Source: Escherichia virus TH47
Reading direction: 5' to 3' (one strand)
DNA length: 64,000 bases
Sequence record: MT446416.1
The notes beneath the pieces were generated by a model that saw only the letters and a list, made by a program, of their open reading frames with translations, ran no database searches and was not told the DNA's origin. The translations under genes were made by a program, and so were the position numbers. Positions 1,450 through 8,127 of the stretch are shown piece after piece (the first letter of the stretch is position 1; the number at the start of each line of letters is the position of its first letter).

Positions 1450-2154
1450 TTACAAGCCATGTCTTTTCAAAAATCTAGCAAACACATTTTTGGAAGCACC
1501 ATAGCTTTCATATATACTAACTTTTTTCTCACCATTAGTCAAACGTTTTTTTATATCTTCTATGTTATCTTCTAAACGTTTTACGTTTGCAAATTTCTTA
1601 GATGGTATGTTATTTTTGGTTCTATAATTCAGTACTGAACCTGAACTGATATTCATTATTTTAGCAATTTCAGTATCTAACAAACCTTGGTTAATATATT
1701 CTTTTACCTTTTCATAATCAACTGATGTTTCACCACCCTTTGTATTTGACGGAGGCTTGACCATTTTTTGTGAACACTCAACACTACAATATTTTGTATA
1801 TGATTTCACTTTAGTATGTCTACGGGAAAATTCCGTATTACAACAAGCACATACAAATGAATCATATCGTGCTTGTACTCCATTCTTATGTGTTTTATAA
1901 CGATGTTCATCAACATGAAGTATTTGTAAATTAGACAAATCATCATTTGTGAAATCATTATCAATGTGGTCTGCTTCTTCAGACTCAGTTAAATATCTAC
2001 CTTCTTGTACTGCTAATAGATATCTGGCATATTGAGTACTGCTTCTATCAGTTGGAGAATTATAAAGTATTACAGTTCTTCTACCTTCAGGGTTTATCTG
2101 TATATACCCATTCTTCCAATCATTACTATATGGATATTCTAATTTTATTTTCAT
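1450..2154 (-). CDS. HNH homing endonuclease
   Basis: 234 aa; HNH motif ADHIDNDFTNDDLSNLQILHVDEH, Cys-rich zinc-binding segment, C-terminal HTH-like tail; sits inside tRNA cluster. Confidence 0.7.
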   Translation of the reverse strand: MKIKLEYPYSNDWKNGYIQINPEGRRTVILYNSPTDRSSTQYARYLLAVQEGRYLTESEEADHIDNDFTNDDLSNLQILHVDEHRYKTHKNGVQARYDSFVCACCNTEFSRRHTKVKSYTKYCSVECSQKMVKPPSNTKGGETSVDYEKVKEYINQGLLDTEIAKIMNISSGSVLNYRTKNNIPSKKFANVKRLEDNIEDIKKRLTNGEKKVSIYESYGASKNVFARFLKRHGL

Positions 2155-2173: not shown

Positions 2174-2478
2174 TGAGCCATCTGTGAGTCGAACACAGTA
2201 CCTAACGATTCGTATAATCTATAGTTTTCACTATAGTACGGACTATATCATCATCCCATAGGGATGCCGGACGCTAATGATGTATTACACAGTAAGATCG
2301 TACTGTACCATCTAGTCTCTGCACCTTCCCAATACGCTTATTGGGCTTGGCTCAGGATTGTCATCACCATTACGTGTTAAGATTTCCCTGAATTCATCCA
2401 GTTTTTCAATCACCATTACTGATGAAAGTCACCATTGTCGATGAGTCGTTTGCTCTAACCACCGTGAGCTAATGGCCC
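2174..2478 (-). tRNA. intron-containing tRNA, anticodon CAT (Met or Ile2-lysidine); exons 2441-2478 and 2174-2210
   Basis: 5' half GGGCCAT-TA-GCTC-ACGGTGGTTA-GAGC-A-AACGA-CTCAT and 3' half AA-TCGTT-AGGTA-CTGTG-TTCGACT-CACAG-ATGGCTC-A give perfect acceptor (7 bp, one GU), D, anticodon and T stems only when a 230-nt insert in the anticodon loop is removed. Confidence 0.65.
2211..2440 (-). ncRNA. group I intron (self-splicing intron candidate) in tRNA anticodon loop
   Basis: 230 nt; 5' exon ends in U, intron ends in G; conserved-core-like elements in order P AATTCAGGGAAA, Q AATCCTGAGCC, R GTGCAGAGACTAGA, S GATATAGTCCG; R/S can pair as P7 (GACTA/TAGTC), P/Q as P4 (CAGG/CCTG). Confidence 0.6.
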
Positions 2479-2507
2479 GATTTGGGTGTTCCTAGTGTTT
2501 CATTATT

Positions 2508-2721
<214 letters not shown>

Positions 2722-2733
2722 AAATTAATTATA

Positions 2734-3126
<393 letters not shown>

Positions 3127-3895: not shown

Positions 3896-4101
<206 letters not shown>

Positions 4102-4105
<4 letters not shown>

Positions 4106-4266
4106 ATTCGTACCAGTAGTTCAATTAAGTACATTTCATATGCTGGATCGTTGATAAGTTTATCATACAGATGTGACTCTGAAATGAATTCCCAATGATA
4201 TTTTCGCCATTTACCAAAACCTGCATATCTAAAATTAATGTCATTCATCCATTCTTCATGTGTCAT
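4102..4266 (-). CDS. small hypothetical protein, MTHEEWM paralog (54 aa)
   Basis: MTHEEWMNDINFRYAGFGKWRKYHWEF...LLVRI; ATGA overlap with both neighbours. Confidence 0.45.
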
Positions 4267-4427
4267 AATCGTACCATTATTTCAATAAAGAACCACGGAT
4301 ATACTTCATGGTTTATAAGTTTATCGTATTCTGCTGGGTCTGATATAATTTCCCAATGATATTTTCGCCAACTACCTATACCCGAATATCTAACATTAAT
4401 GTCATCCATCCATTCTTCATGTGTCAT
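4263..4427 (-). CDS. small hypothetical protein, MTHEEWM paralog (54 aa)
   Basis: MTHEEWMDDINVRYSGIGSWRKYHWEI...IMVRL; near-identical 5' nucleotide sequence to the two downstream copies. Confidence 0.45.
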   Translation of the reverse strand: MTHEEWMDDINVRYSGIGSWRKYHWEIISDPAEYDKLINHEVYPWFFIEIMVRL

Positions 4428-4465: not shown

Positions 4466-5004
<539 letters not shown>

Positions 5005-5096: not shown

Positions 5097-5712
5097 AGTA
5101 CTAATAATTATATCACATCTTTGTGGTCTGTCCCAGAAATTGTGATATAAAAGTTGTTATTCTTGTGGTTTAGTTACACCAACACCAATAATGCTTTTAA
5201 TATCAATATGGATATTAGCAAGTTCATTACTGTCAAACGGGTTAGTTTCAGTTACAACAACAGTGGCATCATTAACTAAAACTACTGAACCTTTTACGCG
5301 GTATCCCTGAAGGAGTACTTGAACATTGTCACCAGCGTTTAATGAGTTAATAACTTCTAATAGGGTAGATTCCATTTTATATTCCTTACGGTTAACTATT
5401 TTTACGTTTTTCTGATTCTGGTACAGTTTTCATTTCACCAATACATAGTTCCATGATGAGTACACCTTTATCATTATAACGTACTACATCTTCAATGTCA
5501 AAATGTCTCGCACTATGAACAACTTCAATACATGCATCATCGGGATATGATTCCAATAATGCTACAAGTTCTGCTTTTGTCATTTGCCATCTCTCTGTTA
5601 TTTATCTTTAGTAATTATAGCATAAAAACACATCATGTCAAATGTTTTATCTTTATTTTAAGTGATACACAGTACTGAAAATATAATAAAGAAAAATTTC
5701 CAGTACTGAGTT

Positions 5713-6687
5713 TTATTTAACGTGTTTCCATGATACACCTCTAATAGCTCTACTTATTTGCATTCTATGAACGCCAAACTTTTTTGCTAATGCGTCATAA
5801 CCAAATTCTTTATGTTTTGGTACAAATACTTTTCTACAGTATCTAACTATATCTTCAGTTAATTTGGAATTTGGTTGTTCATCACCTTTAAGATGATAAT
5901 CAGGGTTATTTATTTCTTTATATTCTGTACTTTCTTTTGCAGTCGCCCACATAAGATTGTCTAAATCATTATGTTCTTTATTACCATCTTTATGTATTAC
6001 GTATGGTTTGTTTTCGGGATTTGGTATAAAAGCCATTGCCATTACACGACTTATTTTAAATCCTATATGTTTGAATTCATCACCAACTTTTATTTTTGTT
6101 GCATGATATGGATTTCCATTACTTAGAGTCTGCTTTAATATTTTTCCAGTGCGTTTGCTGAATAAATTTCCATTATCACTAATAGAAAAATCATCCTCAA
6201 ATCCAATTACATCTTTAAATATTTCAGTTTCATTTTCTGGTGGTTCAAATGGTATTCGGTTTTTATAGTAATATGTATTTTTACAAGAAGTTCCGCAAAA
6301 TCCTTTTGACCTACTATCAGAAATTATTATTCTATTAGTACAGTTGATACATTTTGTTTCATATGGTACAAAGGGTTTATAATTTTCGTATTTTATATTA
6401 CTTCTTTCTAACATATGAATTCTAGCATGTTCAGATGCTGACAATATTTCAAGATTTTCTGGGGAATTATTTAATATATTTTCATCTATATGATGTACAT
6501 GTTCATCGGATGATAACCATCTACCTGCTGCAACTGCTGCAACATGTCTGTGATAATATACTCTCCCAGTTTTATGACACATGGGGTGTTCTTTATCCAT
6601 AAAATAAAGATAACCCTTATTAGTGCCGTGTAATTTTAATTGGTTTATTATACATACCAAAGTTCTCCGTAAGTTGTTGTTTCGCAT
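5713..6687 (-). CDS. HNH homing endonuclease (two HNH-like segments)
   Basis: 324 aa; N-terminal HVHHIDENILNNSPENLEILSASEHARIH and C-terminal module homologous to ORF 4466-4990 (FIPNPENKPYVIHKDGNKEHNDLDNLMWAT). Confidence 0.7.
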   Translation of the reverse strand: MRNNNLRRTLVCIINQLKLHGTNKGYLYFMDKEHPMCHKTGRVYYHRHVAAVAAGRWLSSDEHVHHIDENILNNSPENLEILSASEHARIHMLERSNIKYENYKPFVPYETKCINCTNRIIISDSRSKGFCGTSCKNTYYYKNRIPFEPPENETEIFKDVIGFEDDFSISDNGNLFSKRTGKILKQTLSNGNPYHATKIKVGDEFKHIGFKISRVMAMAFIPNPENKPYVIHKDGNKEHNDLDNLMWATAKESTEYKEINNPDYHLKGDEQPNSKLTEDIVRYCRKVFVPKHKEFGYDALAKKFGVHRMQISRAIRGVSWKHVK

Positions 6688-7578: not shown

Positions 7579-8127
7579 TCATTTCGACCCCTTACTATAT
7601 TTCACGTATGGGCTATCATACAGATCATAACTTTTTTGTGCACGTTCTTTTCTACGTTCATACATGATTCTATCATACTCCTTGGCTTTCGCATTTGCTT
7701 CATTATACAATTTTAAAATTAGCAAAAATGTATCAAGGTCAGGATAGTTTGCTGGATTGATAGTACTCAGCATAAATCGTTCTTCTTCAGTTCTAGCTAA
7801 GTCAAACTCGTACTTAATAGTTTTATACCCACTCCATTTATATGTATGTGTTACTTTATTAGTAAGTACATTGTATCCAACGAAGTCAGTACTACCATCA
7901 AGTACACGAGTAATCATAATAGATGTACCAATGACAATCTGCACAGAACTCATTTCTGTAGTTTTAAAGTAATATATATTACCACGTCGCAGATTAACTT
8001 CTCGTGTCCCAACATGAACATGCTTAAGAACTTCACTTAATGGTTCTGGTACACCACGAATAGGCATATTAATGCTCCTTTTTAATTCTATACATTTTAA
8101 CAGCACTGGTTTCCCAAAAGTCACCAT
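7579..8127 (-). CDS. hypothetical protein, EE-x-x-F-x-x-S-T-I motif family (divergent)
   Basis: 182-aa ORF containing TEEERFMLSTI. Confidence 0.4.
   Translation of the reverse strand: MVTFGKPVLLKCIELKRSINMPIRGVPEPLSEVLKHVHVGTREVNLRRGNIYYFKTTEMSSVQIVIGTSIMITRVLDGSTDFVGYNVLTNKVTHTYKWSGYKTIKYEFDLARTEEERFMLSTINPANYPDLDTFLLILKLYNEANAKAKEYDRIMYERRKERAQKSYDLYDSPYVKYSKGSK

Follow-up and report, generated by a model that had tools for sequence, protein, structure and literature searches.

Group I introns in the anticodon loops of tRNA genes are a classic finding, and the usual type in bacterial and plastid tRNA genes is subgroup IC3, exemplified by the introns of Anabaena tRNA-Leu and Azoarcus tRNA-Ile. 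Here, a tRNA gene split in its anticodon loop by a group I intron is described in a phage, in a 64,000-nt stretch of Escherichia virus TH47 (sequence record MT446416.1), referred to as the window. The Azoarcus intron occupies the same site as the window intron, in the anticodon loop directly 3' of CAU, and resembles it in pairing CAU with a GUG guide, in its U.G wobble and in having no open reading frame (ORF). It differs in being an IC3 intron of a bacterial gene, about 205 nt long, GC-rich and without a hairpin between P7 and P3'. The system is represented by the pre-tRNA-Ile(CAU) group I intron of Azoarcus sp. BH72 (PMC13168695). In a 2026 catalogue, 81% of 333 bacterial tRNA introns were of group IC, with IA introns largely limited to Patescibacteria and a few others; it also includes a Bacteroidota tRNA-Ile2 with an IA1 intron at position 36/37 and notes IA introns for tRNA-Ile2 of Pseudomonadota (PMC13011429), so that both the site and the class were already known in bacteria. 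For phages, a 2014 review stated that every intron observed to date lay in a protein-coding gene, despite the many phage tRNA genes, and explained the restriction by homing endonucleases favouring conserved protein genes (PMC3984707). A 2025 survey of phage introns and a phage annotation guide still treat them as a matter of protein genes.

The window is 99.1% identical to the 351-kb jumbo phage Escherichia phage Turkey5, and the host phage is an Asteriusvirus-like jumbo coliphage of about 350 kb. The split gene lies on the minus strand. An earlier examination of the letters alone (the original prediction) had placed its two halves exactly as given in Table 1, with anticodon CAT and with a 230-nt insert in the anticodon loop that follows a U and ends in G, all of which was found to be so, the U being U36. 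Joined, the exons give 75 nt, GGGCCATTAGCTCACGGTGGTTAGAGCAAACGACTCAT/AATCGTTAGGTACTGTGTTCGACTCACAGATGGCTCA (a slash marks the splice junction here and below), which ARAGORN called as a canonical tRNA with anticodon CAT and RNAfold folded into a cloverleaf. The predicted cDNA of the ligated exons reads ...GACTCATAATCG... across the junction. The cloverleaf had been announced as perfect; it is clean once the exons are joined, but the word was slightly generous, since the acceptor stem has one blemish, a G2.U71 wobble, and exon 2 is directly followed by CAA (2171-2176 region, minus strand) and not by an encoded CCA. Both features occur in the window and Turkey5 copies (2171-2176, 2476-2477, minus strand), whereas the Klebsiella phage copies and the intron-less alleles described below encode CCA. 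The loss of CCA coincides with the insertion of an HNH gene immediately downstream. The locus is very probably a phage Ile2-type tRNA(CAU) gene in which an ORF-less IA group I intron of 230 nt separates nt 36 from nt 37; the intron would most simply be a selfish mobile element.

The group I assignment of the original prediction was borne out by the covariance model that it had proposed as a check. Rfam RF00028 matched over model positions 1-253 at 100.5 bits (E 7.5e-25), the gathering score being 50, and gave exactly one group I intron in the 64-kb window, at the split tRNA. The P-, Q-, R- and S-like blocks quoted earlier in canonical order correspond in the Rfam alignment to the 5' strand of P4, the 3' strand of P4 with P6, J6/7 with the 5' strand of P7, and J8/7 with the 3' strand of P7. 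In its 5' part (2532..2405), this alignment forces the model onto the exon and the sequence upstream of it; the Rfam 5' boundary, which stretches P1/P2 across exon 1 to 2532, was rejected in favour of hand-defined, co-varying P1 and P2.

Table 1. Coordinates of the split tRNA gene, its intron helices and adjoining features in the window.
Feature	Position	Strand	Description
tRNA exon 1	2478..2441	-	38 nt; nt 1-36: acceptor 5' strand, D arm, anticodon stem 5' strand, C32 U33 C34 A35 U36
Group I intron	2440..2211	-	230 nt, ORF-less, IA-type; omega-G at 2211
tRNA exon 2	2210..2174	-	37 nt; nt 37-73: A37 A38, anticodon stem 3' strand, variable loop, T arm, acceptor 3' strand, discriminator A
P1	2444..2440 with 2433..2429	-	Exon U33-U36 and intron C1 (UCAU/C) with guide GGUGA; U36.G wobble at 5' splice site
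P2	2425..2410	-	Hairpin UCAUCA-GUAA-UGGUGA, GNRA loop; 6/6 pairs with both-side changes across the family
P3	2401..2395 with 2273..2267	-	Encloses P4, P5, P6-P6a
P4	2392..2387 with 2356..2351	-	
P5	2382..2376 with 2367..2361	-	
P6/P6a	2350..2324	-	
P7	2317..2313 with 2245..2241	-	Pseudoknot helix GACUA/UAGUC; R and S elements in the Rfam alignment
P7-P3' hairpin	2312..2279	-	Two-part (P7.1/P7.1a-like), 34 nt; conserved GUAAUA internal loop
P8	2265..2253	-	Hairpin AUCCC-UAU-GGGAU
P9.0 and P9	2239..2212	-	P9.0 GUA/UAC; P9 7 bp, GAAA loop; just ahead of omega-G
HNH endonuclease gene	1450..2154	-	Free-standing, 234 aa; starts 20 nt downstream of exon 2; phrog_14913, E 2.6e-56
Promoter-like site	2728..2756	-	TGGACA-17-TATAAT, upstream of tRNA-Ser; 11/12 matches, consensus match only

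An explicit structure was then written on an alignment of six full-length copies (the window, Turkey5, two Klebsiella phages and the two closest non-tRNA relatives), and a covariance model of our own, R1, was built from this seed. All helices pair in each of the six copies, with the exception of one P9 mismatch in Turkey5. R1 scored the window intron at 293.9 bits, as its sole match in the window, and recovered 27 introns end to end among the collected loci, including all three Twort orf142 introns. In the 27-intron alignment, fitted to R1 itself, 95.7% of cells are standard pairs, compared with 33-43% when partners are slid by 1-3 columns, and both-side changes occur in 54 of 62 pairs. None of 500 shuffles reached the observed pairing values.

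The P1 guide co-varies with the exon, the tRNA having UCAU/GUGA and the terminase gene of a Vibrio phage CGAU/GUCG, while the splice-site U.G is kept (25 of the 27 family members). In the 27-intron alignment, helices 3-7, in the P3-P6a region, have 82.6-100% of cells paired, and the hairpin between P7 and P3' (helices 8-9) has 96-100%, with both-side changes in 9/9 pairs. P7, the guanosine-binding site of group I introns, is invariant in all six seed sequences, and covariation therefore neither supports nor contradicts it. The terminal G was present in the window intron and in every homolog examined. Between the window and the Klebsiella copies, a C-G pair has become A-U in P2 and another U-A in P8, with three further compensatory changes in P9.0/P9. 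In a separate, more stringent comparison over the whole intron, the 24 differences from Klebsiella phage Muenster comprise eight double-compensatory pairs, one wobble-compatible change, no disruptive change and seven unpaired positions, which indicates that the fold is under selection in these phages.

Intron-containing and intron-less relatives were compared at the same locus, which is intron-split in at least seven GenBank jumbo phages. Intron and exons are about 90% identical in five Klebsiella jumbo phage records (Muenster, KP13-7, RCIP0023, phiKp_21 and OU509535), among which the two with taxonomy checked, Muenster and phiKp_21, belong to Alcyoneusvirus. The split tRNA was unannotated in 4/4 intron-bearing records checked (Turkey5, Muenster, phiKp_21 and OU509535, the last with no annotation whatsoever). 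In other Asteriusvirus-like coliphages, similarity to the window stops at the final base of exon 1, and an unsplit 'tRNA-Met(CAT)' stands at the syntenic position, with tRNA-Ser on one side and tRNA-Asn on the other. The intron-less allele of phage WPEC5 has a junction identical to that of the window, AACGACTCAT/AATCGTT, and the same anticodon arm. Since the bases flanking each boundary differ, the insertion site cannot slide and lies unambiguously between nt 36 and 37. Presence of the intron is polymorphic within both phage genera. A chance resemblance is excluded by the covariance score, the WPEC5 allele with its identical junction, and the covariation.

The tRNA(CAT) gene itself is hypervariable at the syntenic locus, with at least five different alleles (for example at L004 1583-1661 in vB_Ec-M-J, L014 1584-1657 in EJP2, L013 2335-2409 in ph0011 and L159 1404-1481 in RaK2, numbered as collected loci). 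In one of them, mainly the anticodon stem is replaced relative to WPEC5 (GCCCC/GGGGT for AACGA/TCGTT), whereas the others differ throughout. The RaK2 gene, which is intron-less, is absent from the annotation of its record and was found by ARAGORN. This hypervariability suggests selection to evade a sequence-specific nuclease, directed at either the DNA or the tRNA. Alleles also differ by a compensatory change in the T stem, CTGTG/CACAG versus CGGTG/CACCG, which points to selection on the exons. In the window the exons are mosaic: exon 1 and the acceptor stem resemble those of the intron-less coliphages, while the T stem of exon 2 (CTGTG/CACAG) resembles that of the Klebsiella phages. The mosaic would fit a short co-conversion tract on the 3' side, judged on few informative sites.

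Since a CAT anticodon can belong to more than one tRNA, the identity of the gene was examined. In CAT tRNA genes, G3/C70 is an indicator of Ile, and C4-G69/C5-G68 are required by E. coli TilS; the Ile2 discriminators are G3/A3-C70/T70, C4-G69 and C5-G68, while A11-T24 is the fMet signature (PMC1635315). The window tRNA has G3-C70, C4-G69 and C5-G68, and its C11-G24 lacks the fMet D-stem signature. With the spliced exons of the Klebsiella phages as the query, the best match in 5426/5426 E. coli genomes was a gene annotated as tRNA-Ile, 82.9% identical over the full length. The E. coli copy that was fetched has a CAT anticodon and agrees with the Klebsiella-phage copy throughout the acceptor stem and over most of the D arm and the anticodon arm. 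On the strength of the three acceptor pairs and of this match, the split gene is likely to be a tRNA-Ile2, a lysidine-dependent decoder of AUA, a rare Ile codon. In the 28 long ORFs of the window, AUA accounts for 13.4% of Ile codons (9.8 per 1000 codons, at 35% GC), a demand that is plausible but not compelling.

An elongator tRNA-Met, as related records annotate the intron-less alleles, is unlikely. ARAGORN and GenBank records label genes with a CAT anticodon as Met by default, and the TilS identity rules are not universal, as they co-evolve with the enzyme (PMC1635315). However, G3-C70, C4-G69 and C5-G68 are all present, the last two being those that E. coli TilS requires, and the likeness of the Klebsiella-phage copy to E. 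coli tRNA-Ile(CAT) extends over the arms named above. The anticodon stem beside the loop, CGA/UCG, also matches Ile2, in a comparison with a tRNA-Met sequence.

Several points weigh against an intact split tRNA-Ile2 with a functional intron. The P10 pairing between guide and exon 2 is weak by eye, and the pair counts of the 27-intron alignment lean towards the structure, the alignment having been fitted to its own model. AUA usage, at 13% of Ile codons, is only modestly raised, and the records of relatives call the intron-less gene tRNA-Met. Finally, G2.U71 and the missing encoded CCA, unlike the Klebsiella and intron-less copies, could signal early decay. The locus would then be a relic, splicing inefficiently and yielding a tRNA that is non-functional in this phage; besides G2.U71 and CAA for CCA, the window and Turkey5 share a D loop shorter by 1 nt, and the P9 mismatch of Turkey5 points the same way. 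A relic of this kind is nevertheless very unlikely, as the elements of the catalytic core are all intact, the model match is full length, and the substitutions relative to the Klebsiella copies include eight compensatory and no disruptive ones, to which the compensatory change in the T stem is added. E. coli can add CCA post-transcriptionally, and T4 tRNAs without an encoded CCA mature there.

The subgroup was assigned from the segment between P7 and P3. A hairpin between the 5' strand of P7 and the 3' strand of P3 is the hallmark of IA introns and is not known from IC3. The window intron has 34 nt of hairpin at this place, and its P7 5' strand does not run straight into the P3 3' strand as in IC3. 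The IC3 tRNA introns in Table 5 of the catalogue run directly from ...agagact to the P3' strand (PMC13011429). By this hairpin and by its nearest relatives, the intron is placed in subgroup IA (IA1 or IA2). An origin from the bacterial IC3 (Azoarcus-like) tRNA lineage was rejected on the same two grounds.

Beyond the jumbo phages, the nearest BLAST relatives are ORF-less introns of phage protein genes. The closest non-tRNA relative is the terminase intron of Vibrio phage vB_VpaM_R16F, 80% identical over 170 nt and also 230 nt long; the others are introns of the Staphylococcus Twort/K group, of a cyanophage psbA gene, of Aeromonas and Vibrio terminase genes and of DNA polymerase genes. The R16F terminase large-subunit gene (L005 1779-3814; also L006) is interrupted by four ORF-less group I introns, and its record shows five separate 'terminase large subunit' coding sequences. 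Phage IA2 introns of protein genes (Twort orf142, Vibrio phage terminase, cyanophage psbA) share with the window intron nucleotide similarity, the absence of an ORF and the same set of helices, but they interrupt mRNAs (terminase, tail, psbA, DNA polymerase), whereas the window intron splits a tRNA, and its P1 guide has been redirected to the UCAU in the anticodon loop. The P7-P3' hairpin, with its GUAAUA motif, is common to the window, terminase and psbA introns; the Twort introns fit R1 end to end but differ in the sequence of the hairpin segment.

The distribution of such introns was examined in viral contigs of IMG/VR by searching for a P7' block followed by a T-loop, and the at least 120 loci obtained were screened with ARAGORN and Rfam; the resulting counts are lower bounds. 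At least four further tRNA genes on viral contigs, within tRNA arrays, are split by group I introns. By explicit splicing, L051 and L139 each hold a tRNA(CAT) gene whose 36/37 split has the CTCAT/CGA...GGTGAC junction of the window, L084 is a tRNA-Asn(GTT) split at 35/36 (168-393), and L097 is a tRNA-Thr(TGT) split at 36/37. The L097 contig has a second, shorter group I intron in another gene, 2 kb from the split tRNA-Thr (loci 5691-5930 and 7679-7880). 'tRNA-Gln(CTG)' calls on two IMG/VR contigs were discarded as intron misplacement by ARAGORN, since explicit splicing gave tRNA(CAT). The L051 and L139 contigs carry phage-family proteins. Those of L084 and L097 gave no decisive matches, and their split positions and isotypes resemble those reported for Patescibacteria, so that their viral status comes from IMG/VR alone; they could be phages of Patescibacteria-like hosts or misclassified bacterial DNA. 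A 21-mer scan of IMG/VR returned introns of protein genes only.

A pattern specific for the 36/37 junction was found in three IMG/VR viral contigs and in 14 Pseudomonadota chromosomes, including those of Variovorax, Xylophilus, Thermomonas and Luteimonas, and every match splices to an Ile2-like tRNA(CAT) gene. L051 and L144 are identical in intron and exon sequences. These bacterial introns, together with those of the catalogue (PMC13011429), share with the window intron the tRNA type, the site, the junction, the guide, the IA class and the lack of an ORF, at lengths of 236-279 nt. They differ in being chromosomal, the window intron lying in a phage tRNA array, and in their P7-P3' hairpin, which is of the GTGAGGAGCC...GATAAGCA type, whereas that of the window is of the GTAATAC type found in phage protein-gene introns. 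With R1, they scored 105-141 bits, compared with 192-194 for the phage tRNA introns L139 and L097, both outside the seed.

The hairpin sequences accordingly fall into two types. The first, ...GTAATAC...TTAGCGTCC, was found in the window, the Klebsiella copies, L139, L097 and the phage protein-gene introns; the second, GTGAGGAGCC...GATAAGCA...GAGCGCCC, was found in all 14 bacterial copies, L051/L144 and L084. Thus, two IA sub-lineages occupy the same tRNA(CAU) site, which may reflect independent retargeting or exchange of modules. Core-column identities (all 66-74%) and a neighbour-joining tree without support values did not discriminate between an origin from bacterial tRNA introns and one from phage protein-gene introns, the model being biased by the Vibrio sequences in its seed.

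Next to the split tRNA gene lies the free-standing HNH endonuclease gene of Table 1, identified through PHROGs, its 234-aa product having no Pfam match. It takes up the space between the split tRNA and tRNA-Asn, two genes that are 4 nt apart in phage vB_Ec-M-J. The Turkey5 homolog is 93.6% identical and also begins 20 nt past exon 2. In Klebsiella phages RaK2 and K64-1, the corresponding slot holds a homolog with 70.6% identity, beside an intron-less tRNA(CAT), which in RaK2 directly precedes it and is strongly diverged in its stems. The five Klebsiella phages with the intron lack this HNH gene, and all four combinations of intron and HNH presence occur. The window thus holds an intron without an endonuclease ORF and an adjacent free-standing endonuclease gene. 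Together with the allelic variety and the exon mosaic, this suggests endonuclease-driven exchange at the tRNA(CAU) gene.

This arrangement raises the possibility of collaborative (trans) homing, by which the intron would be more than a passenger. During co-infection, the HNH enzyme would cut the intron-less tRNA(CAU) allele of another phage, at the insertion site or close to it. The carrier would be protected by its intron or, as in RaK2, by a diverged tRNA sequence, and repair would copy the intron and/or the HNH gene into the rival. Collaborative homing is established for cyanophage psbA and for T4-like phages (PMC3984707), which provides a precedent. In the psbA/F-CphI case (Zeng et al. 2009, reviewed in PMC3984707), as here, an ORF-less intron adjoins a free-standing HNH gene, and both elements are polymorphic in their presence; here their association is incomplete, and the putative target is a tRNA gene and not a protein gene. 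The closeness of the HNH gene to exon 2, 20 nt away in both the window and Turkey5, its homolog in the same slot after the diverged tRNA(CAT) of RaK2 and K64-1, and the existence of at least five alleles at the site are in favour, as is the occurrence of all four combinations, by which intron and HNH gene move independently at one locus. The exon mosaic is as expected of a co-conversion tract, but it covers few informative positions and could be ancestral polymorphism. Moreover, the intron occurs without the HNH gene in five Klebsiella phages, and free-standing endonucleases are abundant enough across the tRNA cluster for the adjacency to be a coincidence. Homing of this kind is therefore regarded as possible but less likely than not. 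If true, it would mean that the intron is driven across Asteriusvirus and Alcyoneusvirus, and it would account for the hypervariable tRNA(CAU) alleles; it would also be the first tRNA-targeted case of the mechanism and a device of phage-versus-phage competition.

Other genes of the neighbourhood were also recorded. Two more free-standing endonuclease genes (NUMOD4 and HNH_3; 174 and 324 aa) flank tRNA-Arg(TCT) at 4466-4990 and 5713-6687 on the minus strand, and the tRNA region is a hotspot for homing-endonuclease genes. The NUMOD3-HNH gene beyond tRNA-Asn was ruled out as a partner of the intron, being common to intron-less and intron-containing phages. In Yersinia phage fHe-Yen9-04 (L160 861-933), an annotated suppressor tRNA (tRNA-Sup-CTA) lies about 570 nt upstream of a truncated homolog of the HNH gene of the window. 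Three tandem, abutting 54-aa ORFs on the minus strand (3941-4105, 4102-4266 and 4263-4427), each starting MTHEEWM, look like a small family of genes triplicated in tandem within the tRNA cluster, and Turkey5 has three 165-nt hypothetical genes annotated in a matching arrangement. The tRNA-Ser(GCT) gene (2632-2721, minus strand) was called by ARAGORN but was not among the Rfam matches of the window at the gathering threshold; its homologs in related loci score 58.9 bits with Rfam. By consensus matching downstream of the promoter-like site, no terminator-like site was found before tRNA-Asn. A single transcript of tRNA-Ser, split tRNA-Ile2, HNH gene and tRNA-Asn is possible and compatible with the promoter-like site.

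From these sequences, the following course of events may be proposed for the intron. The tRNA cluster would be transcribed and the intron would fold into P1-P9, its guide GGUGA pairing with exon UCAU so that U36 sits in the U.G wobble. Free guanosine or GTP bound in P7 would attack after U36; the terminal G (2211) would then take the place of the guanosine, and the freed 3'-OH of U36 would attack the 3' splice site. With the exons joined, the anticodon loop would again have its seven nucleotides, CUCAUAA. Once the ends had been processed and CCA had been added, C34 would be modified to lysidine by host TilS, and the tRNA would read AUA. The intron itself would be a selfish, phenotypically near-neutral mobile element, spread by recombination at the tRNA gene between co-infecting jumbo phages.

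The intron might alternatively have been co-opted by the phage, delaying the AUA decoder until GTP-dependent splicing or hiding the anticodon loop from host anticodon nucleases. It does lie in the exact loop that known tRNA-directed defences target, and the locus is hypervariable in the anticodon stem among relatives; however, many close relatives do without the intron, and the mature tRNA would be exposed anyway after splicing. A function of this kind is thus considered highly unlikely, and a selfish element is preferred.

The original prediction had held group I introns to be uncommon in phage tRNA genes, with which the 2014 review agrees (PMC3984707), and no later report was found. The literature search, of partial coverage, returned no account of an intron-split phage tRNA gene, an absence that is not proof. 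The intron is unusual for phages, as had been supposed, but it is not unique, given at least seven GenBank jumbo phages, three IMG/VR contigs and 14 bacterial genomes. What is new is the host, a tRNA gene of the virus itself; group I introns of tRNA anticodon loops, and the bacterial IA introns at the 36/37 site of Ile2, were known.

Standard tRNA finders do not report the gene. Default ARAGORN called four other tRNAs in the 64-kb window and missed the split one, while its intron mode detected a 230-nt intron but shifted it and miscalled a tRNA-Arg(ACG). Therefore, the tRNA repertoires of phages are under-counted, here probably by an AUA decoder.

The generalisation that group I introns of phages reside only in protein genes is overturned by this locus, at which the guide of a phage-type IA intron has been retargeted to a tRNA anticodon loop. 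Through this junction, which recurs in chromosomes of Pseudomonadota, the tRNA introns of bacteria and the introns of phages are linked as one exchanging pool. Alleles that carry or lack the intron, and that carry or lack the HNH gene, exist in two phage genera with E. coli and Klebsiella as hosts. The locus is a natural experiment and offers, in cultivable jumbo phages, a tractable system for the study of intron homing, co-conversion and endonuclease-driven competition.

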